DNA of 54,761 nt from a virus (IMGVR_UViG_3300020578_000101:1-54761), one strand, 5' to 3'. Positions 3,378 through 52,955 are shown, counted from the first letter of the stretch. The notes: generated by a model not told the origin, from the sequence alone. Made by a program: numbers and translations.

Positions 3378-4027
3378 TAGATTCTCCGCAGTTGGACGCC
3401 CAGGTCAGAGCGAACATGACCACGGTTGGCGCGCTGCCGTGCGACGTTAACGGCTTGACGGAAGATCTCCATCTGAGCGCCAGCCAGTTGTGGGTTTGTA
3501 TAGGGTTTACCCGGAGACATCATCAGGCGAGCCTTGGCTCCAGCCGCAATGGCTTCCGAGTAGTCTTCGAAAATCACATCCTCAACAGTTGTTGAGGTCC
3601 TCGATGGTTTGAACGCCACCCGCATCGTCAACCCGTTGGCAACCGTCTCAGCCGGGATTGGGTAAATGGACAGGGTCCGCTCATCCTTTTGAAGGATGTA
3701 CCGAGGGTCCTGGCGGTCTACGTTTGCACCGCGGAACAACCGGTTATAGACCTCAGCGTTCTGCACATCGTCAGGAGCCAGTGGCGTCAACTCGGTACCT
3801 TTGTACCAAGCGCGCATGATGCGCGTCGCCAGTTGCCCAGTGGGCGGCTCAAAGTCGTAATCGACAATGCCAGCCACCACGGTCACTGGGTCGTGGTCCC
3901 TTTGGAGGATTAGACTTTTCTCGCAGAACTCGACGCAGGAGTTCTTGATTGCATGGGTCGCAATCTCCAGGGTGCAGCCAGGGACGTCTGGCATGACGTC
4001 ATTCAGGAATGCGGTATAGGCGCTCAT
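3377..4027 (-). CDS. Head-tail adaptor / tail tubular protein A-like
   Basis: 216 aa downstream of the capsid gene; EFCEKS and AIAAGAKARLM..PGKPY motifs. Confidence 0.7.
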   Translation of the reverse strand: MSAYTAFLNDVMPDVPGCTLEIATHAIKNSCVEFCEKSLILQRDHDPVTVVAGIVDYDFEPPTGQLATRIMRAWYKGTELTPLAPDDVQNAEVYNRLFRGANVDRQDPRYILQKDERTLSIYPIPAETVANGLTMRVAFKPSRTSTTVEDVIFEDYSEAIAAGAKARLMMSPGKPYTNPQLAGAQMEIFRQAVNVARQRANRGHVRSDLGVQLRRI

Positions 4028-4356
4028 GCTGTCATCAATCCATTCTTGAACCGCTGGAAGAACGCGGTCGCACGGACGGCGGAGTTCTCTTCGTCCTCAC
4101 GCAAGCCAGCACGGAACACCACGTAGTCCTTAACAAAGGTCACGTACAAGTCGTCAATAGGTATGTTGTCCGTACCTAGATACGTAGACAGCGACGCGGT
4201 GTACGAGCCAAAGAACAAATCGGGGCGAACCTTCTTCACCTCACGGATGCCGTCGTTCGCAAAACGGAGCATGTCAGCGCCCGAGTAACGGGTGCCAGCC
4301 ACGTCGTTCAGATCGACGCGCGCATCACTGATGACTTGGTTGAAGGTGGTTGCCAT
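4024..4356 (-). CDS. Head-tail adaptor-like protein
   Basis: AR..LND..G.RYS...L....NDG....V..RPD motif; position after the capsid gene. Confidence 0.65.
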   Translation of the reverse strand: MATTFNQVISDARVDLNDVAGTRYSGADMLRFANDGIREVKKVRPDLFFGSYTASLSTYLGTDNIPIDDLYVTFVKDYVVFRAGLREDEENSAVRATAFFQRFKNGLMTA

Positions 4357-4510
4357 TCCTGTTTACCCTTTTTCTCTTAACAACGACCTGTTGCTGTTGG
4401 GGAACAACCGGCTCTTGCTTCGGTTCTTCGTAGATCTCGAACTCCGGGTCGTTAGCCAGAACCTTCGAGTACACGTACACAAATCCTGTCCGCTTGTTCT
4501 TCAAAAACAT
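4325..4510 (-). CDS. Small hypothetical protein
   Basis: 61 aa with AGGAG RBS, directly after the capsid gene. Confidence 0.55.
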   Translation of the reverse strand: MFLKNKRTGFVYVYSKVLANDPEFEIYEEPKQEPVVPQQQQVVVKRKRVNRNGNHLQPSHQ

Positions 4511-4527
4511 TAGGTCTCCTTAATGAC

Positions 4528-4552
4528 CGGGTGAGGGCGTGAGCCCCCACCC
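4528..4552 (-). terminator. Hairpin after major capsid gene
   Basis: GGGTGAGGGC-GTGA-GCCCCCACCC stem-loop; no clear U tract, so it may be a stabilising hairpin. Confidence 0.4.
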
Positions 4553-4560
4553 GTCAAGGT

Positions 4561-5576: not shown

Positions 5577-6554
5577 TTAACGGAATCGTCCTTCTGCTTG
5601 AGCGGCAAATATGTCTTGCTCTATCCTCACCGCCTCATCCTGTGAATACTTGCCACGGCGCATGTCGTCGTAGAAACGAGCGACCTCTGCGTTCGTGTAA
5701 GTTCTCTTGCCCTGCGGTGGTGCCGTACGTCCAGTGACCTTTGGGGTCACCTGTGGCTCCAGGCTTGGCTTTGGAGGGGGAGGTTCTTGTTTGGGCATGC
5801 CGTCTGAGAAAGCGTTGAAGAAGTTGGCAACGCGCCACGCATCCAACTTCTCGTATGCGTCGTCGAACAGTTGTTGGCGCTGTGCCCCGGTATAGGGGTC
5901 AAGTTCGCCAAGCCAGTCAAGGAATCCCTTGTCTTCGTTCAACGACTGCCATGTCGGTGACAAGCCGCCAAGTTCCTCGAAGAAACGTTTGCGCTCCAGG
6001 TTGCTCTGGGTCTTGCGCACCTCTTCGACCGACTGCTTGAGAGTTTCGACATCCCCTGGCACAACCTCACGGGCTGCGCGCTTGACGAAGTCGACGAACT
6101 TCTCACCGTATTCCTCAATCTCCTCTGGCTTGATCTGCGAAGAGGCAGGTTGGGTCGGTTGCTGCGGAGTAGAAAGTTTTCGCTTCAGGTCCTCGATCTC
6201 CGCCTTTAAGGTGCGGATCTCGGCTGCGTACCTTGGTACCTCAGCGCTGTACTTGTTAGCGATGACTTTATACTTCTGCTCCCAACTCGGATCGTTGGGG
6301 TCGGCGTCCGGAAACTTCGGCTTCGGCGCATCAGGAGCGTTTTCCTTTGGCGTCTCGGCTACAGGGTCTGTAGTTTGAGTCGCGTCTGGAGCGCTGGCTG
6401 TAGGCTCAGGCGTCGGTTGCGGATCTTGAGGTTGGGTCTTTTCACCCGGTTCCTCGTTCTTAGGAGCCTCGTCTGAGGTCTTCCCGTAGGCTTGTTGGTA
6501 CAACTCGTCAGCAAGTTGGGCTTGCTTCTCAACTGCTTTATTCACTTTGGGCAT
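5577..6554 (-). CDS. Capsid scaffolding protein
   Basis: Pro/Gln/Glu-rich with coiled coil; lies between portal and capsid genes. Confidence 0.75.
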   Translation of the reverse strand: MPKVNKAVEKQAQLADELYQQAYGKTSDEAPKNEEPGEKTQPQDPQPTPEPTASAPDATQTTDPVAETPKENAPDAPKPKFPDADPNDPSWEQKYKVIANKYSAEVPRYAAEIRTLKAEIEDLKRKLSTPQQPTQPASSQIKPEEIEEYGEKFVDFVKRAAREVVPGDVETLKQSVEEVRKTQSNLERKRFFEELGGLSPTWQSLNEDKGFLDWLGELDPYTGAQRQQLFDDAYEKLDAWRVANFFNAFSDGMPKQEPPPPKPSLEPQVTPKVTGRTAPPQGKRTYTNAEVARFYDDMRRGKYSQDEAVRIEQDIFAAQAEGRFR

Positions 6555-6869: not shown

Positions 6870-7216
6870 TACTTCTTAAATGACTGGCGCTGCCAGGACA
6901 TGCAGTCAGAGCGAGGCATTACCATCCCGCCGTTGCGCAGTAACTCGTTGCCGAACTCGTCGTACCGCGGGTCAGGCTTCTTCATCGAGTCAGTATTGTT
7001 AGTCACCGTTACAGGCGCGGCATTTGATGGGACGAGCGGGTTGACGGTAGGAGGGGTCGTTGCCTTCTCCTCCGTCTTCTGCGCGCCTATCATCTTGCCA
7101 AGGATTTGTTCATAGATCTTGTCTTGCTTCTCTTCGCGAGTCTTGCGGTCTTTGGCTTGGCGACCGGCGATAAATCCGCCGAGGATGCCAGCACCGAGGT
7201 TTGCCATCTTGCTCAT
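6869..7216 (-). CDS. Hypothetical protein
   Basis: 115 aa, coupled to the portal stop codon. Confidence 0.6.
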   Translation of the reverse strand: MSKMANLGAGILGGFIAGRQAKDRKTREEKQDKIYEQILGKMIGAQKTEEKATTPPTVNPLVPSNAAPVTVTNNTDSMKKPDPRYDEFGNELLRNGGMVMPRSDCMSWQRQSFKK

Positions 7217-9138
7217 TGCATTCCTTCCATGGGAGGTTGTTGTTGCTGTTGGGCAGCAGCCATCTGCATGGCTTGCTGTTGCTTCTGCTGTTCGATGATC
7301 TCTTCTGGGGACGGAATCAGTTTGTCCACGTCCATGTTCAAGGTCTTTGCCGCTTCGCGTAGCAGTGCTGCGCGACCAGCAGGACCCATGATCTGAATAT
7401 CAACCGGGTTCGAGGTAAGTTGCAAGAACTCGTTTCTGCGCTGTTGCACCGACTCTTTCAGGAGCGTCCCAACTACACCAGCCGGAATAATCTGCATGTC
7501 TCCCTTAATGGAGTCATCTGGGTCGTAGATCATGATGTGGTCATACATGCGCTGAAGGACCTCACTAACCGCGCTATCCAATGAAAGAATGGCGGTCTTA
7601 ATTCCTTTTGCGGCATTCTCCATCAGCATCGACAAACCAGATGCGGTGCGACCAGCACCCGACACGTTGCTACTGCCGTAGACGTAGTTCGGTACACCAG
7701 TCACTTCGTCAGCAATCTTCTGGAAGTACTGGTACACGTTGAGCAGGGTCTCGGCGTTCATACTCGGCTGGAAGAACCTGACGGCTGGCTGACCGCCACC
7801 GGTTCTATCTGATGTGGTCTGCCAGATCTTCCAGGGGTACATCTTGGTCAGGTCTTCACCATCAGGCAGTCGGTCAACAGAGACCTCGACCTGGGGACCA
7901 GACGCAATGCCCATGTTGTTTGCCAAGGCGCGAGCCGCGGCATTGCAGACAATCTGCACGTCGCGCATCATCTCAGGCAACGCCAGCCCCCAGAATGCGC
8001 CGGGGATGTTCTCCCATGACGCTTTGCTGTAAGGACGGCGACCAAGAGGATCGACGTTCAGAGCCGATTTGATCACAAAGTTGCCAACAACCCAGACGTT
8101 GACCTCATACTCGCGCCAGTCTTCTACGTTGTCCATACCCCATTCGCGAAGCATGTACCCGGAGACTGGACCCCAGAACTCAATGCCTTCGATTAGTTCG
8201 GTGCCAACCAGGGTATTGTTGCGACCCTGAAGCAGGTTGCGCTCTGTGTCGGACTGAACCAGTTCACGGTGACCGGTGGTCCCGTAGGTCATCAGAACCT
8301 CGTCAATCGCTTGCATGTTGTACTGCGGCATGCCGCGCATACCCTCAAGGTCAACACGGGTCAGTTGATGACGCTGAATGATGTAGCCGTCTTGGGTGGT
8401 AACGGCGTTAGGCGAGGGGAAAATGTCGTAAGGGGAGACGCGCTCAAAGTCCTCGACGATCTCTTCATCGACCTTTGGCGTCCAGTTCTTGCCCCACTTC
8501 AGAACCTTCTTCTTGCGAATGACTGGTCCTTTAATGAATGCGCAGGGGAAAGTTGCAAAGTCGTAGACCACTTCGCCCAGGCGATCCTTGAAGTGCGCGT
8601 GTTCCATCTTGTCTTGGATGCGCTTCTCCATGCCACGGGCTGCTTCGAGGGTCTTCTCCTTTAAGCGCTTCTTAACCTCTTCGTAGATCTCGCCCATACG
8701 AGCGTCAATGACCTTGGGGTTAACCCCAATCCCAGACATCTGGATCTCATTGGCTTCAGCAACAACTGTTTCAATAACCTCGTCGCGCAGTTCGTTGGGG
8801 ACGCTCGGCTCGGCGGTGGGGGTCAGGCTCCAGGACTTTTCACCCGTCGAGAACATGACGTCCTTCATCCAGGACTCAGCCGCACGGCACTTAATGTCCG
8901 TCAGCATCATGAAGATGTCTGAGCCACCGGTCTCACGGATCATGGAAAGTTTGTCCGGGTCGTACTCTCCACGGCGCTGGCGCTCGCAGCGCAGCAGACG
9001 CTCGGTAATGTCCGACCTGGCGGACTTCGCCTCTTCGTAGCAACGCTTAATGTAGGCGGTCAAAGAGAGAATAACGATCTCACTCTCAATCTTCGACTCT
9101 TCCTGCGCTGTCTGTAATCGTGTGGTTTGTAGTGCCAT
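7213..9138 (-). CDS. Portal protein
   Basis: 641 aa directly after TerL; RTASGLSML motif and Gln-rich C-terminus. Confidence 0.9.
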   Translation of the reverse strand: MALQTTRLQTAQEESKIESEIVILSLTAYIKRCYEEAKSARSDITERLLRCERQRRGEYDPDKLSMIRETGGSDIFMMLTDIKCRAAESWMKDVMFSTGEKSWSLTPTAEPSVPNELRDEVIETVVAEANEIQMSGIGVNPKVIDARMGEIYEEVKKRLKEKTLEAARGMEKRIQDKMEHAHFKDRLGEVVYDFATFPCAFIKGPVIRKKKVLKWGKNWTPKVDEEIVEDFERVSPYDIFPSPNAVTTQDGYIIQRHQLTRVDLEGMRGMPQYNMQAIDEVLMTYGTTGHRELVQSDTERNLLQGRNNTLVGTELIEGIEFWGPVSGYMLREWGMDNVEDWREYEVNVWVVGNFVIKSALNVDPLGRRPYSKASWENIPGAFWGLALPEMMRDVQIVCNAAARALANNMGIASGPQVEVSVDRLPDGEDLTKMYPWKIWQTTSDRTGGGQPAVRFFQPSMNAETLLNVYQYFQKIADEVTGVPNYVYGSSNVSGAGRTASGLSMLMENAAKGIKTAILSLDSAVSEVLQRMYDHIMIYDPDDSIKGDMQIIPAGVVGTLLKESVQQRRNEFLQLTSNPVDIQIMGPAGRAALLREAAKTLNMDVDKLIPSPEEIIEQQKQQQAMQMAAAQQQQQPPMEGMQ

Positions 9139-9140
9139 GT

Positions 9141-10583
9141 CTATACCCAGCCGCCTGTGGTCGCTTCACGGATGGTGCGCGCACGGACCGGGTTCATCTC
9201 GGCTCGTAGATGCAAGCATCCATATTGGAATGCGTCATGAATGTGGGAGAACTTATCTTTCACGGGTCGATCCTTAAACTTTGTTGTGCCAGAGGATCTC
9301 AACCGCTCATAGCGGTATCCCCCGTTGAATCCCTTGCGCAACATCTTGCAAGACGGGTCAAGCAAGAACCCAGGCTCACCGCCAGACATGCGTTGCAGGA
9401 AGAAAGCAACGCTTTCACGGCGCGCCAAGAATTCGTTTGTCGGTGCTGGCTCGCAGACCATGCCGAGCGACAGCAACTCCTGCATACAGGTCTTCTCGTC
9501 GGTCTGGGCTCGAATGTTTCCAGCCGGGTCGCCCACTGCCTCGATCCGGTTCCGCGGGAACTCGGAGAGGATGAAAGGGCGGACCACCTCGGAGTAGAAC
9601 TGCCGGATACCCATGTCCTCGGACACAAGTTCACGCAGTCCCAACAACTGTCCGCGTGGCGACATCTGGATGAATGCGCATGCAGGGGTTAAGCCAAAGT
9701 CAAACGCCGCAATAACCGGCATCCCATCAATCGGCTTGAGCGTGTCCTGCGCCAGATGAACCTTTTCGTTCCACTCTGGGTAAACCGGTTTGCCATCAAG
9801 CGTGGTCCCGTACTCTCCGAGCAGGAAGACCTTGATCCAGTCTTCAGTTTTACCTGCTACTTGGTTGAGGTAGTACTGGTACCCGAGCGCGTGGTTTTGG
9901 ATGTTTTCCGCTTGCGGGTTTGGGATGTACTGTTTGAACGTTTGGCTTTTTGGGTCGAGGTCTTGGTAGAGACCGCCCGGTTGTCGGAAGAACCGATAGG
10001 TGTCGGGTCTATTCTCTTCTGCGATTGTGTACCACCAGGAGTCGTCGTCTGGTGGGTTTGTGTCCATGATGACTCCAGTCCACGTTGGACCGCCGACCCT
10101 TTTCGAAGGAAAACGCCCAACGCGTTGGGTACACATGTCAAGAACCGCTTTATCCATTTCAGAGGCTTCATTGATCCACGCTCCAGTTAGTTCGAGGGAC
10201 CGGAGTTTGTTCACGTCCTCTGGACGGTCAATAGCAATGAACAGGACTTCAAGTTCCAGACCAGTACCGTCTCCGATATCCCCGATGTTGACCATCGATG
10301 TAATAGGCGTATCCCATTTCATGACGGCTATGTCCTGCATCCAGTCCATCCACGTACGAATGGTGGTGGACTTCAATTCAGGGTAGGTGTTACGCAGAGC
10401 CGCCCAACGAGAGCGGCGAATGCCATCTGATCCAGGCGCCTGTTCGAGCGCGCGGGACATGACCTCGTAACAGCATGCTGTTGACTTGCCGGAACCTACA
10501 GGTCCCATCAAGCCACGTACAAAAGAGTTGTCCAGGTGAAAGGCTTCACACGCCGCACCCGGTGGGGCGTAGTTGACTTCCAT
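9141..10583 (-). CDS. terL: Terminase large subunit
   Basis: Walker A GPVGSGKS, Walker B-like WINEASE, DTNPP, nuclease DFGLTP and SHIHDA. Confidence 0.95.
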   Translation of the reverse strand: MEVNYAPPGAACEAFHLDNSFVRGLMGPVGSGKSTACCYEVMSRALEQAPGSDGIRRSRWAALRNTYPELKSTTIRTWMDWMQDIAVMKWDTPITSMVNIGDIGDGTGLELEVLFIAIDRPEDVNKLRSLELTGAWINEASEMDKAVLDMCTQRVGRFPSKRVGGPTWTGVIMDTNPPDDDSWWYTIAEENRPDTYRFFRQPGGLYQDLDPKSQTFKQYIPNPQAENIQNHALGYQYYLNQVAGKTEDWIKVFLLGEYGTTLDGKPVYPEWNEKVHLAQDTLKPIDGMPVIAAFDFGLTPACAFIQMSPRGQLLGLRELVSEDMGIRQFYSEVVRPFILSEFPRNRIEAVGDPAGNIRAQTDEKTCMQELLSLGMVCEPAPTNEFLARRESVAFFLQRMSGGEPGFLLDPSCKMLRKGFNGGYRYERLRSSGTTKFKDRPVKDKFSHIHDAFQYGCLHLRAEMNPVRARTIREATTGGWV

Positions 10584-10897
10584 TACCAGAGTTTCTTGCG
10601 AGCCCAGTAGTTAGCGCTGAACTTGTCGTCCTTCGTCAATTCACCAGACTTGTTGCGAATGCCAGCAGACCGAGCAAGGTAGTTCTCGCGACGCTTCTCA
10701 CTACCATGTTGGCGGTAGTCTTCGTAGTCGCGATGACCGAACGACACCTTCTTAATCTCGTCCCCTTTCTTGGCGAGTACGACCATCTTGTGCTTTGACC
10801 CCGCTGGTGCCTTCTTTGGTTTGTTGAACCCCGGAAACTCCTCTCCCAGGTAGGTTAACTTCCCGCCCACTCTCTTCGCTGCTGTTGCTTTTGCCAT
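10583..10897 (-). CDS. Small basic hypothetical phage protein
   Basis: Lys/Arg-rich; V.FG...Y...H....RR.NY.AR and SA.YWA motifs. Confidence 0.7.
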   Translation of the reverse strand: MAKATAAKRVGGKLTYLGEEFPGFNKPKKAPAGSKHKMVVLAKKGDEIKKVSFGHRDYEDYRQHGSEKRRENYLARSAGIRNKSGELTKDDKFSANYWARKKLW

Positions 10898-15222: not shown

Positions 15223-15297
15223 ACAACTCCTCCTTAAGCCAGTATTGGCGCGGGTTACAGGGATGAACAACTATGAACAACTGTTTTGCTGTGTGTA

Positions 15298-15340
15298 AAT
15301 ACCGAATGGTATTGACAAAAGAAAATAAAGGGAGGAACAT
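15298..15340 (+). promoter_or_regulatory. Sigma70-type promoter overlapped by a 16-bp operator
   Basis: AATACC-GAAT-GGTATT (15298-15313) overlaps TTGACA (15312-15317); weak -10 GAACAT at 17-nt spacing. Confidence 0.6.
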
Positions 15341-15642
15341 CACAACTGTTCCGGTTGTTCTTTAGTGCTTCTGCCCTCTCCCGGAACGTGACCGAGGGCT
15401 GGGTTCCAGGTGACCGAGCAATGTCCTGGTTGGCGAGAGTCCTGCTGGTCGGGGCAAGACGCCGGAGGCGCGGTGCTAATCCGACCGTAAAGTGCGCTCG
15501 ACCAGCCCGCCGGGAATCCCCGCGCCCCAGTCAATTCTGTCTCTGACTGTTTCAGGGTTTCAGTCCCTGGCCCCCGAAAGTCTGCGGGGTCCAGGAGCGG
15601 ACGCCCTGTCCACCAGTTTTTAACCACCAGGAGGTAATCACC
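15341..15642 (+). ncRNA. Candidate structured leader/ncRNA
   Basis: ~300 nt without a credible ORF; at least five consecutive stems. Confidence 0.45.
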
Positions 15643-16187: not shown

Positions 16188-17411
16188 ATGTCATACGCTC
16201 ATCTGACCAAGCCGCAGTTGGTCGACATCGTCAAGCGATGCACCGGCTCTGCTGGCGACTACGCTCGCAAAACCAAGCAGGAGTACGAGGCGCAGGTTGC
16301 CAGTCTGCCTGTCGAGGACGTTCAGTCCGCCGCCCAGGCTCTCGGCATCCCGCTGATCTCTGGCGTCTGGTCTGGCGCCGCTACCGCTCCGGCTCCCGTT
16401 GTTGCCGATCCGGTCCCTGACGTCCAGGTCGTCGCGTCCAAAACACTGGGCGAGATTTTCGGCATCCGCGGCAAGTTTGCCAAGGAAGCCGTCGACGTCT
16501 GGAATGACCCAGCCGCCCCGGTCCTCGACCCGATCTACAAGTTCGACGGCGAACAGTTGTTCTCCGCTGTGACCGCACTCAAGCGCGGTCGCAATGTCTG
16601 GCTTGCAGGTCCTGCCGGTACCGGTAAAACCGAGTTCGTCAAAAACCTGTGCGCCGGTCTCGGTCGCGCTTTTGTCCGCGTTTCCTTTGACTCCAGTGCT
16701 GAAAAGTACGAGTTCATTGGCGGCGAGCGCGTCAAAAACGGCACCACCGTCTACCAGCGCGGCGTCGTTCTCCGCGGTTTTGTTCGTCCTGGTGCGGTGA
16801 TCCTGCTTGACGAAGTGTCTTTTGCCCGTCCCGAGTACCTGTCGGCGCTTCACGCCGCTCTTGAGCCCGAGGGCGTTGTGACCGTCCCGGAAACTGGCGA
16901 GGTCGTTCGCAAGGCTCCTGGCGTCGTGTTCTTTGCCGCCGACAACTCCAACGGTCGAGGTGACTACACCGGCATGTACGTTGGCATTCGCGAGCAAAAT
17001 GTCGCGTTTGTTAACCGCTTTGCCCGGACGATTGAGTTCAAATACCTGGAGCCAGCCGCCGAGGTCAAAGTCATCACCGCTCGCTCCGGCTGTAAGGAGT
17101 CCCTGGCGGCGCTTCTGGAGTCGTTCATTTGCGTCTGCCGCGAGGCTGGCGACCAAGCCCAGTTGGACCACGTCCCAACCCTTCGCGAGTTGTTCTACCT
17201 CGCCGAGGCGTTGACCGACGGGGTGCCTTACCGGCTCGCGTTCGAGCAGTGCATGGTCAACCGTGCCTCGCCCGAGTCGCGTGAGGTGTTGCAACAACTG
17301 TGGCGCGCCAACGTTTCTGACGACGCCATCAGGTTTGCCCTGGAAGGCATCACTCCTGCCAGTTCAGTTGTTCCTGCTGTTCAATCCACTGAGGAGACTG
17401 TCAATGTCTAA
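16188..17411 (+). CDS. MoxR/CobS/CbbQ-like AAA+ ATPase
   Basis: Walker A GPAGTGKT, Walker B ILLDE, AADN sensor, NRF; strong RBS. Confidence 0.9.
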   Translation: MSYAHLTKPQLVDIVKRCTGSAGDYARKTKQEYEAQVASLPVEDVQSAAQALGIPLISGVWSGAATAPAPVVADPVPDVQVVASKTLGEIFGIRGKFAKEAVDVWNDPAAPVLDPIYKFDGEQLFSAVTALKRGRNVWLAGPAGTGKTEFVKNLCAGLGRAFVRVSFDSSAEKYEFIGGERVKNGTTVYQRGVVLRGFVRPGAVILLDEVSFARPEYLSALHAALEPEGVVTVPETGEVVRKAPGVVFFAADNSNGRGDYTGMYVGIREQNVAFVNRFARTIEFKYLEPAAEVKVITARSGCKESLAALLESFICVCREAGDQAQLDHVPTLRELFYLAEALTDGVPYRLAFEQCMVNRASPESREVLQQLWRANVSDDAIRFALEGITPASSVVPAVQSTEETVNV

Positions 17412-19488: not shown

Positions 19489-19493
19489 TAACA

Positions 19494-19509
19494 GGGGGGT
19501 TCGCCCCCC
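19494..19509 (+). other. GC hairpin with UUCG loop between VWA and HD genes
   Basis: GGGGGG-TTCG-CCCCCC; no U tract. Confidence 0.5.
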
Positions 19510-19521
19510 AGAAAGGATCGT

Positions 19522-20043
19522 ATGTGGAAAAAAGTTGAACTCGAAAATGCCGACACCAGTGACGTCTTGATTGATCGGGCAATTAGGTTCGCAACCGCGG
19601 CGCATGATGGTATGTTCAGGGCTGACGGCGTCACCCCCTACATCAACCACCCCATTGCTGTCGCCAACATCCTGCGCGTCCTTGGTGAGCCAGCGAATAC
19701 AGTTGTTGCCGCTGTTCTCCATGACGTTATTGAGGACTGCGGGGTTGACCGCGAGTACTTGGCTCACAAGTTTGGGATCTGGGTCGCACTGACCGTCAGC
19801 GAGGTTACGTTCCCGGCTGGCGTCCCGAACAGGAGAGCCGCGATCATTGCGGCAATCCCGAACATGAGCCCTGCGGCTATCAAAATCAAAGTCGTTGACG
19901 CCATTGTCAACCTCGCCGACCTGCCCAACTCGGGCTGGGATCGTGGCAAGGCTGAACGTTATCGGGCTCACCTGGAGCGGGTCATTGCCGTTGGTGTTAA
20001 CACGCTCTGGAACTTGGCTTGGCGCCCGAAAAGCGAGGAGTAA
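19522..20043 (+). CDS. HD-domain small alarmone hydrolase (Mesh1/SpoT-HD-like)
   Basis: AH....R, PYINHP, LHDVIED, SEVT and K..D...NL motifs. Confidence 0.85.
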   Translation: MWKKVELENADTSDVLIDRAIRFATAAHDGMFRADGVTPYINHPIAVANILRVLGEPANTVVAAVLHDVIEDCGVDREYLAHKFGIWVALTVSEVTFPAGVPNRRAAIIAAIPNMSPAAIKIKVVDAIVNLADLPNSGWDRGKAERYRAHLERVIAVGVNTLWNLAWRPKSEE

Positions 20044-20073
20044 AAAATGCCGGGGGTGAGGTTCCCCCGGCTT
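20042..20073. terminator. Probable bidirectional terminator
   Basis: GCCGGGGG-N7-CCCCCGGC with an A-run on the left (U tract on the minus strand); lies between convergent units. Confidence 0.65.
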
Positions 20074-25261: not shown

Positions 25262-25283
25262 GAAATTCCCCTTGTTAGAAAAC

Positions 25284-25420: not shown

Positions 25421-25476
25421 TCGAATCCACTCACAAAAAGGAGCCTCGCAACTTGAGACCCCGTTAGGAAACTAAA

Positions 25477-26109: not shown

Positions 26110-26114
26110 CGGAC

Positions 26115-45181: not shown

Positions 45182-45731
45182 GGCGAAATACCTTTAAAAC
45201 TAAACTCTGATCAATCGTGTCGACCGACGAGTAGCAATACGGCAGGTGGTGCAGAATTTTCCCAGGCTCCACGCACACGCCAATGTGCAGTTGCCGTTCG
45301 TACACCACCACATCTCCAACCTCGATAGGAGACGATGTCTCACTAAATCCAAGCGGCTGTAGCATGTGCATGTATCCGTCAAGGTTTAAACGGATGTACT
45401 CGTTACGGTTGACGGACTTAACGTACTCAACGGCACCGATGTCGTAGTTAGCGTCCATCCATTGTGCGGCAAGCGTAACGCAGTCCTTTACACGAAACTT
45501 GTACGGTCTACCTCTCCAGTCGCTCGGAAGAACGACCGGCGTAAAGCGATTCAAAACTTCGTCCACGTACACGGAGTTCACCACGGGGCTTTTCGATACG
45601 GTGAGGAATCCATTCTCTGCAAGCCGAATACATCCACTAATGATGTCTGCTTTTTCACCAACATGGTCGATCCAAAACTGCATGGTCGTTTCTGGGTCGA
45701 CTGGCTCTGGCTGGTAGTCGTATTCCATCAC
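45174..45731 (-). CDS. NlpC/P60 tail-assembly protein (lambda gpK-like)
   Basis: GRPY....DC..L, GDVV, HIGV...GKILHH; no intact JAB HxH motif. Confidence 0.75.
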   Translation of the reverse strand: MMEYDYQPEPVDPETTMQFWIDHVGEKADIISGCIRLAENGFLTVSKSPVVNSVYVDEVLNRFTPVVLPSDWRGRPYKFRVKDCVTLAAQWMDANYDIGAVEYVKSVNRNEYIRLNLDGYMHMLQPLGFSETSSPIEVGDVVVYERQLHIGVCVEPGKILHHLPYCYSSVDTIDQSLVLKVFRRG

Positions 45732-47227
45732 ACCGAAATTGAAATGAACTTGTTGGTTAGGTCGATGACAAACAGGTTGTCAGTACTCTGCATCTTCCCG
45801 GCGGTAATGGTCCCCATGTCGGCTTTTATTGAAGACAGGTTTGTAATAGTTGCTGTATCGATCTTCGCCAGGGTTATGGAAGCGTTTTGAATCATTGCTG
45901 TGCTGATGTGAACGACACCCCCACTTACCGTGAATGGCGAGTACGTTGTCCCGTTAGACGCCTGATTCTTTATTGAAAAATTGCCAGCCACAAAAGCGGC
46001 GTTTCCGCCCGAAATTGCTACTGTTGGATTGCTTGCGCTAAACGATCCATCTTGGTTGACCGACACCGTCCCACCGGCATACAACTCCGCGCCATAAACC
46101 TTTGCGCCATTGATGCCGATCGCAGCATTGATGTTTCCGGCAGTGATCTTGTTTGCAGTCAGGGAGGCAATCTTTGCCGACGAAATAGAGGCATCCTGGA
46201 TCATTGCTGATTTCAGGTGGACCGTCCCGCTCACCACAGCAAACGGCACTGCATCAGCAGACGGGCTGTTTGTCAGGTTGTTGAGAGAACTTGTTGGATC
46301 GACTACCGCAAACTTATCAGCACGGATGATGAAAGCAGAGGTTGTTGTCCCGCTAACTGTCTCTGATGCCAGACCGAACCCGGACACATGCCCGTTCTGG
46401 TCAATCTTGACCGTGTATTGCGCAAAGAGGCTGTTGTCAGCAGCGGCACGTGCAACCGCTTCAGCCTGAACAGTTGTTGATAGTGTCCCAATGGTTGCAT
46501 TGACGGTATCGATCTTCTTTACCGTAACGTCGTTCATCGTCCGCACGGTGTTTTGTATTGACGAAACAGTGTTGCTGTCTCCTTCAACACGCGCAACACG
46601 TGTTGACAACTGTTTGAACAGCGTCGACCGCGCCAATTCGGACTGAATCTTTGAAACCAGTTCAAAGGGGTTAACGTCAGCAACCGCCTCCACCGTCTCT
46701 TGGCTGAACGGACCACGAACGTCAGCCCGAGACACGAACCTCACCCAGTAGTAATACTTGACAGCAGCCTGTGGCGGACGGTCAAAGTAATTCTGGCTAC
46801 TGCTTGTCGCAATCAAACTTGCAGTCGCAACATCATCGGTTACATTGCGCCAGATTTCTGTAAAAGAATGATTCTGGTACTCCGGTTGACCCCAGTTTAG
46901 AAACACGGCCCCGATACCACCAGTTGCCACAACATTTACCGGCGCGGGAGGTGGAGTTAAATCCTGGGTTGGCTGGTAACCGTCAGCAGTAATGTCTGCT
47001 GGGACAAGCGGAACGAGCGCGTTTCTTGCCCCCTGAATGGATGCCGAGACAGCCCCACTTGGGTCAACCGCGAGTCCGAGCAAAGCCAATTCGCGAAACG
47101 TGACGTTCTTGTCAAGCCGGTCCCCGGACAGTCCTTCACGGACGTCCAAAAGCATCTTGACGTTCGATAAGACGTGATTTGGGTCTCCGATTCCTGGTTG
47201 AGGTATCGAGGGTACTTTGGTCGTCAT
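45728..47227 (-). CDS. Tail tip/host-specificity protein (FN3 + DUF1983/gpJ-like C-terminus)
   Basis: PPAP.NV, YYYWVRFV and AQYTVK...NG.V.GFGL.....SAF...AD.FAV. Confidence 0.8.
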   Translation of the reverse strand: MTTKVPSIPQPGIGDPNHVLSNVKMLLDVREGLSGDRLDKNVTFRELALLGLAVDPSGAVSASIQGARNALVPLVPADITADGYQPTQDLTPPPAPVNVVATGGIGAVFLNWGQPEYQNHSFTEIWRNVTDDVATASLIATSSSQNYFDRPPQAAVKYYYWVRFVSRADVRGPFSQETVEAVADVNPFELVSKIQSELARSTLFKQLSTRVARVEGDSNTVSSIQNTVRTMNDVTVKKIDTVNATIGTLSTTVQAEAVARAAADNSLFAQYTVKIDQNGHVSGFGLASETVSGTTTSAFIIRADKFAVVDPTSSLNNLTNSPSADAVPFAVVSGTVHLKSAMIQDASISSAKIASLTANKITAGNINAAIGINGAKVYGAELYAGGTVSVNQDGSFSASNPTVAISGGNAAFVAGNFSIKNQASNGTTYSPFTVSGGVVHISTAMIQNASITLAKIDTATITNLSSIKADMGTITAGKMQSTDNLFVIDLTNKFISISV

Positions 47228-49863
47228 ATCGCTTTGAGTTCAGTGATGGACTGCACAACCGCCACCAGGGTGATCTTGACTTGCCCCTCGACCGTTACGT
47301 ACCAGTCCCTTGCAATGTACCCGGACGGCAAGCGAAACGGCTTTGAGTCCGTAACCGAGTGTGTATGCTTCAACGCTCCGTCTCCGTACAACTTAAATGT
47401 AACCGCGGTTGCGTAGGATTCGGCTATGACCTGAGCCGCGCCGAAATTGATAGGGGTTGGGGACTCATGAATCTTGCTCTTCCACAGGTATGTTTTCTTG
47501 GACGAGCCCTTGTCAAGCATAACGATGTTGCCACTATTAACGATGTGCAATGAGTCCGCGGTTGGAACAACTGTTGCCGCTGTGGTGGTCTCAGTGCCCA
47601 AGGTCACTGGTGCATCCGCGCCATTGAGCGTGAATACAAGGTGGCCTGTCGTGTTGTCTGCTCTGGTGAAGAAGGCGTAGTAACGCCCTTCGTGCAGGTA
47701 AGCCCGAATCGACGATGGGTTGTACTCTTGCCATTGCTCCTGGGACAGAACTTTGCTGGTCAGAACATTGACCCCATTTAGCCCCAACTGCACCAAACCA
47801 TCCGGAGAGGCGTAGATCACGCTGTCGCCGGTTTCCACAATCGACCGCTTCGAAATGCATGCCTGTTGCAGGGACGTCTTAACGAGCGTCATTGCAGACG
47901 GGTCAATGCCGGTAGCAATGTAGGGGTAGGAGTCCGTTAGGATCGCCACAGACTGACCGAACGCTCCGCCGCCAACGATGTTGTGATCGACTGGTAAACG
48001 GTTCTTGGGGGACCATGCATGCGGCAGAAATGGTTCAGAAAAGCAGACGTCTTTCCCAGAAAAGCCGACGAAGATCCCGTTCGCCATCACCCGCAGCCCG
48101 AACATGTTCGATGGGGGCGACCCCCACTCAATCGACGGGATGACCTCGCCAAGGTTGGACTGCCGGATGTTGTCGGTAAATGAGGTAAGTGCAACCGCCT
48201 GTTCGCCCACAAACTGGTAGTCAGTCTCGCCGCTACCAGATGCTGTGCGGTAGATGTACTTCTTAGTAATGTTGAACGCACCAGTCGGCGCTCCGCCGGT
48301 CGTGACCGTTACCGGCTCCAAGGGGTCAATGTCGATTGCAGTGCTGGGGTCTGAAGGGGGTCCTTCTTCGCCATACTCGGACACAAAGGTGTAGACGTAC
48401 ACCCGGTTCTCGGCGAGGCGCTTGGGAGGCAGGGTTGCTGCTGCGCCGAATGCGCCATCAGGCGTGTCGAAGCCATCAATAACGGCTGGCGCAGCGTTAC
48501 CAGCAATAGACGACTGCGAATAGATGTCCACAAATACATCTTGAGATGCCGGAACTTCGCGCACCAGTCTGTAACCAGCCTCCGGCAGGTTATACGATCC
48601 GTCCGTGTACGTGAGGTTCTGGCGATAGATGCGCTTCTTGTCGATCTCAAGACCGAACTCTTCGACATGAGAGAGCCGCACCTTCGTCACATCGGCAACA
48701 ACAGACACAACACCACTGTCTTTACTAAGCGGACCCTCTACGCCAGCAAAAGTAACGTACGAAATAGCGTATGCCCTTGACGTTTCCGCCACCGGGCTTG
48801 CGCTATCCAGGTTGTCCTGAATCGATGTGTCGTCAAATGGGATAAGTACGTTGGGGGCAATGAGCGGTCGACGCGGTCTGTTTCGAATGCTGTCTGCAAG
48901 AGTGGCTGCTGACGATAGATCAGTGTCCGAGAAGGTGTCGGTATACTCGGTGTCATTAACCCCGATCGAAGCGACGAATTTGAAAGCGCCACTGACCTTG
49001 CGGTAGATGCGCTTATGGGTGATGGCTGCATTCCCGTTGGTATCGGTTGGCAGATTGGAGAGGCGGACCTTCGGCAGGTAGCGACGTTTGACGACATACG
49101 AACCGGAAGGGGCAGACCCTGGGAACGATTGGGTATTCTCGATCTTGACTGTCTTGACGTTCGATACCTCAACGACCTTCCAGGCGGCGTTCCACCCAGC
49201 AACAGAAGAGCCAGTGATTCCAATGTAATCGTCGACTAGGAGGTCGTGGTCTTTGTTGAAAGCAATGACGTACCGGGTCGCACTTTCTGACGTAAATGAC
49301 AATGGATAAAGAGTCCCAATGTCAGCGTAGTTGATCAGAGCCTTGACGATTACAGGATCGGTCGGACCAGATTGCTTGCTCCCGTTTTCGTTTGAAAACG
49401 TGATGATGTACTCACGCTCTTGCGTCTCTGGGTTTTGGATTGCAGAACCAATGGCGCTGATCGCTACGGTTGGCTTCGGGATTCCAAGCGTGTACGAGTT
49501 CCTTGGGTAAGGACCACTTCCAGACGCGAACGCAAATACAGTTGGGGCGTACTTTGGCAGGCCGTCACCGGACCAATAGATCCTGCCGTACTCGTCCTGG
49601 GTAATAGGGGAGAGCGCTACGTCAACATCACCGGAGAACTCGAACCAGTTCGCAGTTTCGTTCGCAGTTGCACGGGCGCGAAAGATTGTCTGAACCGTAC
49701 CGGCAGACTTAAGTGCAACAACTGTTTCGTTTGTTTTGACCGGTTCAATTGCCCCAGAAAACAAGCGCACGTCGACCGCTTCTTGCGCCTCTGCTGCATC
49801 AAGCAGTTTAGGGTTAAGGATCGGACGCATGCCCTTGAAGCCGCGTAATACAAATCCAGCCAT
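47224..49863 (-). CDS. Tail nozzle/tubular protein B-like
   Basis: F.GM.P...P.LL, GEEGPPS, FSEP..PHAW, C....S.V....V.YAS.DGL. Confidence 0.75.
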   Translation of the reverse strand: MAGFVLRGFKGMRPILNPKLLDAAEAQEAVDVRLFSGAIEPVKTNETVVALKSAGTVQTIFRARATANETANWFEFSGDVDVALSPITQDEYGRIYWSGDGLPKYAPTVFAFASGSGPYPRNSYTLGIPKPTVAISAIGSAIQNPETQEREYIITFSNENGSKQSGPTDPVIVKALINYADIGTLYPLSFTSESATRYVIAFNKDHDLLVDDYIGITGSSVAGWNAAWKVVEVSNVKTVKIENTQSFPGSAPSGSYVVKRRYLPKVRLSNLPTDTNGNAAITHKRIYRKVSGAFKFVASIGVNDTEYTDTFSDTDLSSAATLADSIRNRPRRPLIAPNVLIPFDDTSIQDNLDSASPVAETSRAYAISYVTFAGVEGPLSKDSGVVSVVADVTKVRLSHVEEFGLEIDKKRIYRQNLTYTDGSYNLPEAGYRLVREVPASQDVFVDIYSQSSIAGNAAPAVIDGFDTPDGAFGAAATLPPKRLAENRVYVYTFVSEYGEEGPPSDPSTAIDIDPLEPVTVTTGGAPTGAFNITKKYIYRTASGSGETDYQFVGEQAVALTSFTDNIRQSNLGEVIPSIEWGSPPSNMFGLRVMANGIFVGFSGKDVCFSEPFLPHAWSPKNRLPVDHNIVGGGAFGQSVAILTDSYPYIATGIDPSAMTLVKTSLQQACISKRSIVETGDSVIYASPDGLVQLGLNGVNVLTSKVLSQEQWQEYNPSSIRAYLHEGRYYAFFTRADNTTGHLVFTLNGADAPVTLGTETTTAATVVPTADSLHIVNSGNIVMLDKGSSKKTYLWKSKIHESPTPINFGAAQVIAESYATAVTFKLYGDGALKHTHSVTDSKPFRLPSGYIARDWYVTVEGQVKITLVAVVQSITELKAI

Positions 49864-51270: not shown

Positions 51271-51279
51271 GCTGAATCC

Positions 51280-52203
51280 TTATGCCGTAAAGGTGCCGGA
51301 GGATGTAAAGGTGTGGTAGGTATATCCATCCGAGGAAGTTACTGTGCCGCCTGTACCAACCTGAGCGCCCGGGTAACGAATAATTACAATTCCTGAACCC
51401 CCGTTTCCACCAACTTGTGAGGCACCGCCCCCGCTTGCTGTTCCACCAGTTCCACCGCCGCCGCCGCCTGTGTTTTCGCCGCCGTTAAAACCTTTTTGTG
51501 TGCCATTCCCGCCGCCACCACCGCCGCCACCTGACCCGCCGGTTGAAAAAGTTGCGGAGTCATAAATTCCGCCGCCACCGCCTCCTGCGTAAGATGTTCC
51601 TAAAGACTTCCAATTTATACCTACTCCACCATTTCCCGCTACACTTGTTGTTGCGTTTCCACCTGCGGAAGTTGCACCGCCGCCGCCACCACCAGGATAT
51701 TTATTTGTATACGCGGCAGTGCCACCAGCGTTTCCTTGACCAGACGTGCCTGTTCCCGGGTATCCTGTGGCTGAACTACTATTTCCTGATCCACCAGCAC
51801 CAGAACCACCGTTTCTTTCTGCTCCGTTGTAAACGCTATTGCTGTTTGGTGCTGAACCGCCACCTACGGCAGATGTGCCATGGAAAGCAAAAGTGGTATT
51901 CGATCCAGAAGTCGATGATTTTCCATCGTTTTGTGCAGCACCTCCGGTTCCACCGCCTCCAATTGTTACAGAATATGCGGTTCCAGGCGTAACTGTTCCG
52001 CTACTGTCAATTGCTCCACCAGCGCCGCCACCCCCAGTAGCGGCATTGTTAAAACCGGCGCCGCCGCCACCGCCCCCACCGGCAACAATTAAATACTCAA
52101 TAGTGTAAGTAACACTCGGCCAATTAGAACCCATAATGGCGTTCCGTTGGTCTTTTAAAGACCAGATACCGCTAGCACCTGTTGTGCTTGGAAACTGTGC
52201 CAT
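51280..52203 (-). CDS. Gly-rich tail fibre/receptor-binding protein
   Basis: ASGIWSL N-terminus plus the same Gly-rich domain. Confidence 0.8.
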   Translation of the reverse strand: MAQFPSTTGASGIWSLKDQRNAIMGSNWPSVTYTIEYLIVAGGGGGGGAGFNNAATGGGGAGGAIDSSGTVTPGTAYSVTIGGGGTGGAAQNDGKSSTSGSNTTFAFHGTSAVGGGSAPNSNSVYNGAERNGGSGAGGSGNSSSATGYPGTGTSGQGNAGGTAAYTNKYPGGGGGGATSAGGNATTSVAGNGGVGINWKSLGTSYAGGGGGGIYDSATFSTGGSGGGGGGGGNGTQKGFNGGENTGGGGGGTGGTASGGGASQVGGNGGSGIVIIRYPGAQVGTGGTVTSSDGYTYHTFTSSGTFTA

Positions 52204-52556
52204 TAGGAAATCTCCTCATAAGAGCACACGGCTACGAGGTCACTGGCTGCACTGGCTGTACAGCGAAGTGCGTCACCTTCTTCGAGGTAAATGGCTTTAG
52301 ACATCAGATCAAGCGTTGCATCCGATGGAACGGAAACTGTCGAGACAAGAGGGTAAGCCGTGCTTGAGCGAAACAAATCTACTGTGATGTTAGCAACGTT
52401 TGTGCCGTCCACATTTGAGATATAAAGAGCGTTGACTTTGAATACTTTGTTGCTGCCACTTGAGTTAGTGACGATTGCCGTAGCAGAAGTGCCGACAGCC
52501 TGTACCGCCGTCTTACCTGTGATGGTTGCTACATTGACGATATTAGGGGCTGCCAT
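52203..52556 (-). CDS. Tail-fibre-associated beta-rich protein
   Basis: MAAPNIVNV...IYLEEGD...SYEEIS; paralog of 354..680. Confidence 0.75.
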   Translation of the reverse strand: MAAPNIVNVATITGKTAVQAVGTSATAIVTNSSGSNKVFKVNALYISNVDGTNVANITVDLFRSSTAYPLVSTVSVPSDATLDLMSKAIYLEEGDALRCTASAASDLVAVCSYEEIS

Positions 52557-52559
52557 GAT

Positions 52560-52955
52560 TTATCCTCCGAATACAATTGCCATCGCAATTGCTTTACCTG
52601 TTGACGCCTTTGGCGCAAGAAGAGCATCAGCCTCTGCTTTTGTATAAGCACTATCAATCGGCTCGTAACGAGCGTCAGCCTCAGCCTTGGTGTATCCGTC
52701 ACTCAAACCGCGGGGCAGGAATGCCACCGTCTCAACCACGTCATCAGCAGAAGCAGCCGCAGTCAGAACAACTGTTGTGCCGTTCGACGCTGTGTAGTCG
52801 TCGCCATTGATTAACTTGACACCGTTGACATACACGTCGATGTAGCCGACCGTGTAGCCGCTGGTGGGCGTGAATGTTGTTTGCCCAGCAGTGGCGGTGA
52901 ACGTCGTCGTAATCCTTTGGGACGCTACGCCTGGACTGTTGCCGATGTACGCCAT
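52560..52955 (-). CDS. Tail-fibre-associated protein
   Basis: MAYIGNSP, ATAGQTTF, VYVNGV, YTKAEADA repeats; ends AIAMAIVFGG. Confidence 0.75.
   Translation of the reverse strand: MAYIGNSPGVASQRITTTFTATAGQTTFTPTSGYTVGYIDVYVNGVKLINGDDYTASNGTTVVLTAAASADDVVETVAFLPRGLSDGYTKAEADARYEPIDSAYTKAEADALLAPKASTGKAIAMAIVFGG

Follow-up and report, generated by a model that had tools for sequence, protein, structure and literature searches.

Highly iterated short words are known from cellular chromosomes and include HIP1, the uptake sequences and Chi. The uptake sequences of the Neisseriaceae (DUS, with dialects) and the Pasteurellaceae (USS) are words of 9-12 bases that recur about once per kb in both orientations and are accommodated within genes in tolerated frames. 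These sequences fill the host chromosome and also are found in resident prophages; they are not palindromes, and DUS often are arranged as inverted pairs at terminators. Chi is a short word for which number, not position, matters, which confers additive protection from nuclease and which phages can mimic; it is asymmetric, orientation-dependent and only few-fold enriched. In phages, dozens of copies of a short word are read by a phage protein in the case of the stoperators of cluster A mycobacteriophages (L5 repressor) and the C1 operators of P1. Stoperator-type words are the immunity operator, are located mostly between genes and, in L5, lie in one orientation with respect to transcription.

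HIP1 (GCGATCGC) of cyanobacteria is an 8-base palindrome that occurs once per 1131 bp in Synechocystis 6803 and is said to be maintained by selection, with an unknown function (PMC6604393). The title of a reference cited there attributes the spread of HIP1 to nucleotide substitutions (PMC6604393). One-base deviations from HIP1 fall preferentially at the ends of the word, and some lineages have alternate palindromes (PMC4390886).

The window analyzed here, a stretch of 54,761 nucleotides, is the complete circular genome (54.8 kb) of a temperate phage in which the 10-mer AACAACTGTT is iterated. The word matches HIP1 in four respects: its density, the bias of deviations to its ends, spellings that are specific to lineages and gain through substitution. 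Copies were found in both coding and non-coding DNA at a density of the order of one per kb, with values per kb of 0.31 (10-mer) and 0.47 (8-base core) in the window and of 0.73 and 0.79 in the related genomes G001 and G699, respectively. However, HIP1 is a property of cellular chromosomes and has resident-methyltransferase sites embedded, whereas enrichment of the phage word was detected on phage DNA alone and not in sets of 401, five and five cellular genomes or in the remainder of MAG G011, and the ORFs scanned included no methyltransferase. The phage word also is richer in A+T and its form in the window is not a palindrome. As with DUS and USS, it is a short word present about once per kb, in both orientations, in genes and in clade dialects, but it lacks a saturated host chromosome among the genomes searched, has an apparently palindromic ancestral form and does not form inverted pairs at terminators. 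Scatter of a short word over a temperate phage genome recalls the stoperators and the P1 C1 operators, but identity with the immunity operator, intergenic placement and single orientation are all absent. The phage word differs from Chi in the palindromic form assigned to its ancestor, an enrichment of at least 20-fold and a 9:8 orientation split.

Occurrence of the word in the window

The sequencing runs that contain the phage are lake-water metagenomes. The genome specifies a CI-like repressor, an integrase, an attP that includes the 3′ half of tRNA-Asn, an exonuclease of its own and a probable annealing protein, and contains no tRNA genes. A near-identical DNA search with the first 25 kb found no match among deposited phages. 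Proteins were scanned against Pfam and/or PHROGs for 43 of the ~70 ORFs. The combination of integrase and attP with no partition gene among the 43 scanned ORFs does not correspond to parS as the centromere of a plasmid prophage.

Exact copies of AACAACTGTT number 17, nine on the + and eight on the − strand, and all have the starts given in a preceding sequence-only reading of this DNA. In 100 dinucleotide-preserving shuffles the mean count was 0.18 and the largest three, and no shuffle reached 17. Matches with at most one mismatch totaled 34, comprising the 17 exact and 17 one-mismatch copies, compared to a mean of 3.51 and a largest value of 10 in the shuffles. Single mismatches are at positions 1, 2, 9 or 10 of the word in 14 of the 17 cases, and the 8-base core ACAACTGT is present in 26 copies against a zero-order expectation of 1.3. 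The center of the word in the window is solely AC/GT: the perfectly palindromic 10-mer AACAGCTGTT and 8-mer ACAGCTGT are absent, and any center other than AC/GT or that of AACAGCTGTT has 0-2 copies each. Synonymous-codon shuffling within genes (n = 1000) produced a mean of 3.49 and a largest count of six, with three of the mean 3.49 being intergenic copies that the procedure leaves alone; with protein and codon usage preserved, ~0.5 genic copies were generated compared with the 14 seen. A 5th-order Markov model with the window as training sequence yielded a mean of 2.19 and a largest count of seven. Neither model explains the 17 copies, which bears out the proposal of a DNA-level signal: the excess is not brought about by protein or codon usage.

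The 14 genic copies occupy three frames, with eight co-oriented with the gene and six opposite. The frame T-T-V is used by five copies, at 3584-3593 (−) in gene 3377-4027(−), 29245-29254 (+) in gene 28583-29290(+), 34792-34801 (−) and 38818-38827 (−) in the giant polyvalent-protein gene 30796-40065(−), and 46469-46478 (−) in the tail-fiber-like gene 45728-47227(−). Six copies are read as T-V-V, namely 8761-8770 (+) in the portal gene 7213-9138(−), 21592-21601 (+) in the HNH endonuclease gene 21367-21681(−), 35464-35473 (+) in the polyvalent-protein gene, 47566-47575 (+) and 49717-49726 (+) in the internal-virion-protein gene 47224-49863(−), and 52767-52776 (+) in gene 52560-52955(−). The frame Q-L-F accounts for copies at 5866-5875 (−) in gene 5577-6554(−), 16552-16561 (−) in the CobS-like AAA_5 gene 16188-17411(+), where the peptide is E-Q-L-F, and 38405-38414 (−), again in the polyvalent-protein gene. 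The three remaining copies are intergenic or at a gene edge. The copy at 15276-15285 (+) adjoins a CI-operator-like palindrome (15300-15313) and a TTGACA hexamer, that at 20301-20310 (+) is between convergent genes downstream of the Q-like gene 20346-20894(−), and that at 30570-30579 (+) shares its first base with the end of the integrase stop codon and is located ~100 nt from the attP core.

One-mismatch copies in which the core is intact include GACAACTGTT at 2475-2484 (+), 19214-19223 (−) and 46605-46614 (+), AACAACTGTC at 9643-9652 (+), CACAACTGTT at 15341-15350 (+), which is 65 nt from the copy at 15276, AACAACTGTG at 17293-17302 (+) and 39136-39145 (+), and AACAACTGTA at 19698-19707 (−). 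The sequence-only reading had listed six such copies, of which the starts at 15341, 17293 and 19214 were correct and the other three begin one base earlier than given (2475, 39136 and 46605). The nearest exact 10-mers are 413 nt apart and the nearest pair of cores 65 nt apart (15277 and 15342). Gaps between copies look random, with short gaps at about the frequency of chance, which does not fit cooperative pairs or regular spacing. Overall, the word is scattered singly and at random across the genome in both orientations and all frames.

Full-text searches of the literature for AACAACTGTT, AACAGTTGTT and, in connection with phages, AACAGCTGTT recovered only primers and eukaryotic sites among the matches listed. 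This is in agreement with the sequence-only reading, which did not recognize the word as parS, matS, Chi or an SOS box; we know of no correspondence to any of these elements.

Dialects and turnover of the word among related phages

Words of this kind also extend over the genomes of uncultured lake phages in the family, the TerL proteins of which are 62-88% identical, at densities of up to ~0.8 copies per kb and in all frames and between genes. The word is spelled in dialects that follow TerL clades: one clade has the perfect palindrome ACAGCTGT and the clade of the window has ACAACTGT. Copies of ACAGCTGT number 43 in G001, 36 in G699, 34 in G008, 26 in G003, 22 in G002, 13 in G009 and 10 in G010, where the zero-order expectation is <1 per genome; the 8-base perfect palindrome is a feature of all of these genomes and not of the window. 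The AC form is present in 26, 14 and 13 copies in G000, G004 and G005, respectively. The word is sharply defined, with 140 exact 8-mers in five pooled GC-type genomes compared to ≤25 for any single-base variant. In a TerL tree of 47 rows, all nine AC-type rows are in one starred clade of 17 and 10 of the 11 GC-type rows are in another starred clade of 14, and none of 200 label shuffles needed as few changes. These results show that the exact spelling of the word tracks the TerL phylogeny of the phages. The description of the word as an AACA-N2-TGTT near-palindrome whose perfect form contains AGCT is upheld by the sister clade, which carries AACAGCTGTT genome-wide. The natural dialects of the word comprise GC and AC centers and A/T or C/G flanks.

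The GC-type phages encode T-A-V, x-Q-L-x or N/D/H-S-C at word sites, the last with the rare residue Cys, and the window encodes T-T-V or T-V-V in place of T-A-V. Thus, the word overrides the encoded protein at the DNA level, with residues altered from T-A-V to T-T-V or T-V-V.

The avoidance of AGCT in the window that was noted earlier is complete (0 seen, 172 expected). Within the AC clade, depletion is confined to the window, L007 (0 seen, 22 expected) and L139 (3 seen, 20 expected), and AGCT is near expectation in most members, for example 243 seen and 267 expected in G004. The suggestion that avoidance of AGCT produced the asymmetric center is not sustained, as all nine AC-type rows belong to one clade in which most members have near-expected AGCT; avoidance is not a sufficient cause of the AC center. 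The AGCT-free center fits the total absence of AGCT from the window, yet predates the purge. GGCC is purged in most GC-type genomes (G001 has none where 292 are expected) and is not purged in the AC-type G004 and G005.

Word positions mostly turn over among relatives, and the orientation of the word flips at one position. At site 16552, relatives have AACAGCTGTT (L049 and L050), AACAGTTGTT (L009) or AACAACTGTT (L016), and at 5866 and 8761 AC-type copies are new where relatives have neither form. The word is gained and lost by point substitution, and therefore number is kept rather than positions. In eight separate genome pairs, 17 of 408 word columns differed compared with 9118 of 127600 other columns (odds ratio 0.56, Fisher p 0.016): in close pairs, copies already present are more stable than the sequence around them and are under purifying selection. 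At sequence divergences above ~10%, conservation of the word does not exceed that of its flanks. Conservation in homologous genes, which the sequence-only reading had named as a check, thus was observed for existing copies in close pairs but not for positions, most of which turn over. In contigs of four runs covering 20001-40000, none of the 40 variant positions listed was inside the eight 10-mers, a comparison that has no power with ~0.16 expected by chance. Overall, the data show selection acting on the word at the level of DNA.

Copy number differs between G699 (36) and the closely related G006 (five), which shares four of its five copies with G699 within a single tail segment. The 31.2-45.5 kb region of G699, where it most resembles G006, is devoid of the word. 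Recently exchanged modules lack the word and copies build up gradually. As word-rich and word-poor lineages exchange modules they must therefore meet in the same cells, and only some are rich. Any benefit per copy would be small because a 14-kb module without a single copy is tolerated.

Candidate readers and cellular genomes

No evident reader protein was found among the 43 scanned ORFs of the ~70 in the window, and no gene had a distribution that included every word-rich genome and none of the word-poor ones. A CobS/CobT-like AAA_5 and VWA pair co-occurs with the word: G001-G005 and G008 have it, the word-poor G006 and G007 lack it, and all 17 loci found with the pair have at least 0.29 words per kb. 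The pair was discounted as a reader: the loci that carry it are all close kin, the contig of the word-rich G699 is incomplete, and the solved relatives of the pair are midasin and chelatase-type remodeling ATPases with no DNA role. The candidate small terminase (10583-10897) also was set aside, as its similarity ignores dialect, being 72% to GC-type G009 and G010 and 68-70% to AC-type G004 and G005. Integrase arm sites also were dismissed, with one copy only near the attP core. A look-up in the Atlas with a conserved 177-residue protein matched only viral clusters without names.

Enrichment in host genomes had been suggested as a check on the word, and none of the cellular genomes searched, in sets of 401, five, five and one, is hyper-enriched. 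In the 401 genomes of one bacterial class, the highest count among the matches listed was 37 per strand per genome, and several genomes had 5-10 times the count of a reversed-pattern control, in a 10-mer survey that is insensitive to modest, Chi-like enrichment of a few-fold. In five genomes that match the attP core with the 3′ half of tRNA-Asn (96-100% identity), the word is present in 1-5 copies per strand and TerL was not found. The only cellular record with a contig of the family is MAG G011, in which 22 of 26 MACAGCTGTK sites are on the wholly viral 61-kb family contig and four are in the other 3.1 Mb, although binning of this contig may be wrong. Scans for two copies of AACAGCTGTT within 30 nt recovered scattered density only in family members (one of 16 IMG/VR and one of 80 metagenome loci). 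A host at phage-like density would have ~50 times more DNA than the phage and therefore should dominate such pair scans, but scattered density was confined to phage-family loci.

Explanations for maintenance of the word

AACAACTGTT may be the local dialect of a highly iterated recognition word of this temperate lake-phage family, the ancestral form of which probably was the perfect palindrome RACAGCTGTY. Belief and doubt are evenly balanced on the proposal that selection preserves the word as a target for a symmetric DNA-binding protein that belongs to the phage family, with additive action of the copies, in a manner like HIP1. The protein, probably dimeric, would recognize the word as double-stranded DNA and would be a product of the phage family and not of the host, with each copy adding a small benefit wherever it is located. 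A host factor is the less likely reader because no cellular genome searched is enriched. Nevertheless, recognition by a host factor is conceivable, if unlikely, whether as a Chi-like site for RecBCD or AddAB, an uptake-like signal, or a site for nucleoid or repair proteins, in which case the dialects would follow host clades that happen to match the phage clades. The density of 0.3-0.8 per kb, random scatter in both orientations, turnover and clade spellings all resemble uptake sequences, the difference in GGCC avoidance between clades is consistent with different hosts, and the bacterial genomes that exceed the reversed-pattern control point in the same direction. Against these features, hyper-enrichment was not detected in any of the cellular sets, a palindrome with a 9:8 orientation split does not fit orientation-dependent Chi, the phage encodes its own exonuclease and probable annealing protein, and word-rich and word-poor relatives recombine with each other. 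Improbable to a somewhat greater degree is a functionless word that arises from sequence-biased repair or mutation, along the lines of the methylation-dependent mismatch-repair model that has been put forward for HIP1. On this view, the ACAGTTGT and ACAACTGT forms would be C-to-T deamination products of methylated AGCT, and as no methylation target would remain after one conversion, double converts would not arise: the double convert ACAATTGT is present in 0-1 copies per genome compared to up to 26 for single converts. Orientation flips at one position, the gradual accumulation of copies that are missing from newly acquired modules, and the concentration of one-base deviations at word ends, as reported for HIP1 (PMC4390886), are expected on this basis, and neutral drive would give the same picture as a small benefit per copy. 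However, no DNA methyltransferase was found in the 43 window ORFs or in 10 accessory proteins of G001 and G008, AC-type relatives keep AGCT near expected levels and therefore do not undergo general AGCT decay, the new AC copies at 5866 and 8761 are situated where relatives have neither form, and existing copies change less than their surroundings.

The temperate gene set and the many scattered copies of a short asymmetric word could suggest, by analogy with L5 stoperators, extra prophage-repressor operators that block transcription through lytic genes during lysogeny. This possibility is very remote: the divergent cI/cro region has a different, TACC-N4-GGTA-like palindrome in inverted arms at 25281-25299 and 25403-25421, with a third copy at ~15300-15313, and contains no copy of the word, which argues against the immunity operator. 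Moreover, eight copies are in the same and six in the opposite direction to transcription, 14 of 17 are inside genes, and tblastn did not find a CI homolog in the word-carrying G004 or G005. It is more improbable still, and scarcely credible, that the excess arises secondarily from amino-acid composition, codon usage and the avoidance of AGCT, for example because Q-L cannot be written as CAG-CTG in this genome. The hexamers CAACTG/CAGTTG indeed are ~3-fold over-represented (82 seen, 26 expected), part of which arises because Q-L must be rewritten without AGCT, but the codon-preserving shuffle leaves almost all of the genic excess unexplained, copies are in several frames and in non-coding DNA, and relatives without AGCT avoidance also are enriched.

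If the preferred proposal of a phage-encoded reader is correct, a phage protein is expected to prefer AACAACTGTT over AACAGCTGTT or AACAATTGTT. The word then may mark phage DNA as self for protection, organization or choice of DNA in packaging. As a bolder and rather unlikely extension, the family would write a fast-evolving self-mark with lineage dialects into its own DNA, and a phage-encoded reader would distinguish phage from host DNA for protection, replication or packaging. Such a reader possibly would be an early protein, or a domain of the ~3000-residue polyvalent protein that probably is delivered with the DNA. The AC center may reflect a shift in reader acceptance at the base of the clade of the window, and later could have let the lineage purge all AGCT in response to an AluI-type restriction enzyme with the word retained. 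Dialect shifts then would offer a way of evading restriction enzymes with cleavage sites inside the mark.

The phage word is tractable, as it resides in ~55-kb genomes and belongs to the phage and not to the cell by every test run. Word-poor relatives and word-free modules inside word-rich genomes provide natural controls, and binding assays with a few dozen proteins would put the maintenance of an iterated palindrome to a direct test. The case also illustrates mutual constraint between a dense recognition word and the avoidance of restriction sites, with AGCT absent from the window and present in every word copy of the sister clade.

Abundance of the iterated word in the phage genome

The word AACAACTGTT occurs 17 times in the window, nine times on the (+) strand and eight on the (−) strand. 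All 17 exact copies reported in a sequence-only reading of this DNA were recovered at their starts, and three of the six one-mismatch coordinates reported there were correct, the other three being one base too high. Dinucleotide shuffles contained 0.18 copies and none of 100 reached ≥17. Matches with up to one mismatch numbered 34 versus 3.5 expected, the 8-base core ACAACTGT was found 26 times versus 1.3 expected, and 14 of 17 one-base deviations fall on positions 1, 2, 9 or 10. The center of the word is AC/GT only: the perfect palindrome AACAGCTGTT is absent from the window and the remaining centers occur zero to two times each. Gaps between copies look random. Synonymous-codon shuffles within genes (n = 1000) yielded a mean of 3.49 and a maximum of 6 copies. 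As three of these are intergenic copies that the shuffle leaves untouched, ~0.5 genic copies are expected compared to 14 seen. A 5th-order Markov model fitted to the window's own sequence produced a mean of 2.19 and a maximum of 7. The genic copies are read as T-T-V (five), T-V-V (six) or Q-L-F (three), eight in the direction of the gene and six opposite to it; the other three copies fall outside coding sequence or on the edge of a gene. The excess survives both null models, and the iteration of the word noticed earlier is real and stronger than was then known. The next most frequent 8-mers in the window, CCGCCGCC and GGTGGCGG, are G+C-rich repeats.

The window spans the full 54,761-base record of a temperate tailed phage with genes for an SU10-type portal, large terminase (TerL), tyrosine integrase, CI-like repressor, primase/helicase, HNH endonuclease, Q-like protein, exonuclease and endolysin. 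The late genes are separated from the Q-like gene by a + strand cassette (16188–20043) that encodes an AAA_5 ATPase (CobS-like), a VWA protein (CobT-like) and an HD phosphohydrolase. One ORF crosses both window ends, so that the genome was assembled either as a circle or in circularly permuted form. At least half of the sampled words of the window are contained in each of 21 lake-water metagenome runs. Among deposited phages, there was no megablast match to the first 25 kb and the best TerL match was 48% identical. The giant gene at 30796–40065 (− strand) encodes a polyvalent protein of 3089 residues that contains LPD38 and MuF_C domains and is conserved family-wide at 22–61% identity; in the relative G699, 17 of 36 word copies fall in the corresponding gene. 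Within the giant gene of the window, contigs from three of four lake runs bridge 1002 bases (334 codons; 31758–32761), but this join may be a repeat artefact instead of a deletion variant as its shorter side comprises only 29 letters.

Two spellings of the word across the phage family

The main new result of the analysis is that the word has two spellings across relatives of the window. Scanning IMG/VR for TerL identified 142 relatives; 80 were kept, and an unbiased k-mer count was made for each. In the closest group (TerL 82–88% identical) the top 8- or 10-mer contains ACAACTGT (AC-type) in many loci, and in the next groups (73–79% identical) the perfect palindrome ACAGCTGT (GC-type) replaces it. 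Whole relative records confirm both spellings genome-wide. Counts of ACAGCTGT and of ACAACTGT/ACAGTTGT, respectively, are 43 and 3 in G001, 36 and 1 in G699, 34 and 5 in G008, 26 and 4 in G003, 22 and 1 in G002, 13 and 0 in G009, 10 and 1 in G010, 0 and 26 in the window (G000), 4 and 14 in G004, 0 and 13 in G005, and 5 and 1 in each of the word-poor records G006 and G007. The double variant ACAATTGT occurs zero or one time per record in all records. The pooled GC-type genomes (n = 5) contain 140 exact 8-mers, and every one-base variant ≤25 times. Flanks differ by record, with A...T preferred in G001 and G699 and C...G in G008. In a TerL tree of 47 rows, which was restricted to loci of ≥8 kb and to rows with some 380 or more matched residues and in which many "poor" rows are short flanks, all nine AC-type rows belong to a single well-supported clade of 17, in which the window branches first, and 10 of 11 GC-type rows group in another clade of 14. 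As few spelling changes were obtained in none of 200 label shuffles.

AGCT is absent from the window versus 172 expected, and GGCC is found 11 times versus 250 expected. GCCGGC, CTGCAG, CTCGAG and GTGCAC also are absent (6–16 expected for each) and GGATCC occurs once (12 expected). The locus L007, the nearest relative of the window, lacks both AGCT (22 expected) and GGCC (24 expected), and the purge is partial in L139. The AGCT purge explains why the window tolerates no GC reversion. It was rejected as the reason for AC use by the clade: the remaining AC-clade members retain AGCT, e.g., 243 compared to 267 expected in G004, and therefore the AC center predates the purge. Most GC-type relatives have purged GGCC without purging AGCT.

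Turnover of copies and exchange of modules

Conservation in homologous genes, which the sequence-only reading had looked to for support, was borne out only in part, as positions mostly are not conserved and the core is retained at site 3584 in some relatives. Relatives have unrelated sequence and no conserved word at sites 5866 and 8761. At site 16552, which encodes the conserved peptide E-Q-L-F, relatives possess AACAGCTGTT, AACAGTTGTT or AACAACTGTT, three synonymous spellings of which one is an orientation flip. In heavily non-independent site-by-relative comparisons, the word was kept better than its flanks at 90–99.5% flank identity (0.988 versus 0.957), and no better at 70–90%. Among eight phylogenetically separate genome pairs, word columns (either partner) differed at 17 of 408 positions versus 9118 of 127600 other aligned columns (odds ratio 0.56, p 0.016). 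The protein is overridden by DNA at word copies: GC-type phages encode T-A-V, x-Q-L-x and N/D/H-S-C, whereas the window encodes T-T-V or T-V-V.

Word density is a property of modules. G699 and the word-poor G006 are close kin with structural proteins that are 75–94% identical. None of the copies in G699 lies in the 14 kb most similar to G006, and the five copies in G006 are all within one 5.7-kb tail segment, four being common to G699. The two records (loci L149–L151 and L102–L104, respectively) are strongly mosaic, with head/tail proteins 75–94% and early genes 35–76% identical, and the boundary between modules is marked by an abrupt change in word density. Copies thus build up slowly by substitution, and fixed places are unnecessary. 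DNA is exchanged between word-rich and word-poor lineages.

Phage or host determinant and candidate readers

At ~30674–30724 (− strand), the attP core coincides with the 3′ half of a tRNA-Asn(GTT) gene including the CCA end, as judged from the sequence, from its match in 24 of 301 Pseudomonadota genomes (four of them 100% identical over 49–53 nt) and from contigs mapped on it, which displayed loose ends and a ~50-fold depth step exactly over this stretch; the step arises because tRNA genes of other organisms map there. In five genomes with a 96–100% identical tRNA half, AACARCTGTT occurred 1–5 times per strand and did not exceed the count of the reversed control. Among 401 genomes of the class to which a Steroidobacteraceae MAG belongs, none was enriched and the highest count listed was 37 sites per strand; this tally takes in the unpublished genomes G054, G311, G156 and G323, without which the result is the same. 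In the one MAG with a family contig, 22 of 26 MACAGCTGTK sites are on that 61-kb contig, which is wholly viral and so may be binned wrongly. Collection-wide scans looked for two AACAGCTGTT within 30 nt. The IMG/VR scan gave 16 loci with scattered copies in L126 only, a locus of the family member G699. The metagenome scan gave at least 118 stretches, of which 80 loci were examined; scattered copies were present among these only in L207, also a family member, and none of nine other loci checked for kinship qualified. A host with phage-like word density would carry ~50 times the DNA of the phage and should dominate such scans. The scan outcome and the recombination between word-rich and word-poor lineages therefore favor, but do not prove, a determinant carried by the phage.

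The best explanation, to which we give an even chance, is a phage-family recognition word: a candidate symmetric protein encoded by the phage would read the word, and the copies would act additively. That the host reads the word is unlikely, as the enrichment in cellular genomes that the earlier reading had suggested checking was not seen in any genome searched, the pair scans gave scattered copies only in family members among loci examined, and recombination links rich and poor lineages. A functionless repair or mutation drive is slightly less probable again, with no methyltransferase among 43 scanned window ORFs and 10 accessory proteins of relatives. Operators of the stoperator type are very improbable since the cI/cro palindrome differs from the word, and a codon artefact is scarcely credible given the genic copies lost in the codon-preserving shuffle.

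No gene tracked the word across the compared genomes. The CobS/CobT-like pair co-occurs with the word (present in G001–G005 and G008, absent from G006 and G007), but was rejected as reader as it is without DNA-related relatives. Integrase arm sites were dismissed because a single word copy is near attP. An immunity operator was excluded likewise, as the inverted arms in the cI/cro region have a different, TACC-N4-GGTA-like sequence. These palindromes (25281–25299 and 25403–25421) flank the divergent cI/cro promoters, and a third copy (~15300–15313) is beside a word copy and a TTGACA hexamer at 15.3 kb. They probably are CI operators, in which case the 15.3-kb promoter would come under repressor control.

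L5 stoperators, P1 operators, uptake-sequence dialects, Chi and polyvalent proteins form the background for comparison. Nothing was found in the literature on the word, by sequence or as a highly iterated palindrome in phage. The word behaves like HIP1 as portrayed in two accounts (PMC6604393, PMC4390886). The cyanobacterial HIP1 octamer itself occurs nine times in 18.6 kb in loci L049 and L050 (record G002, 64% G+C) and seven times in L062, counts which suggest an excess over expectation from composition alone.
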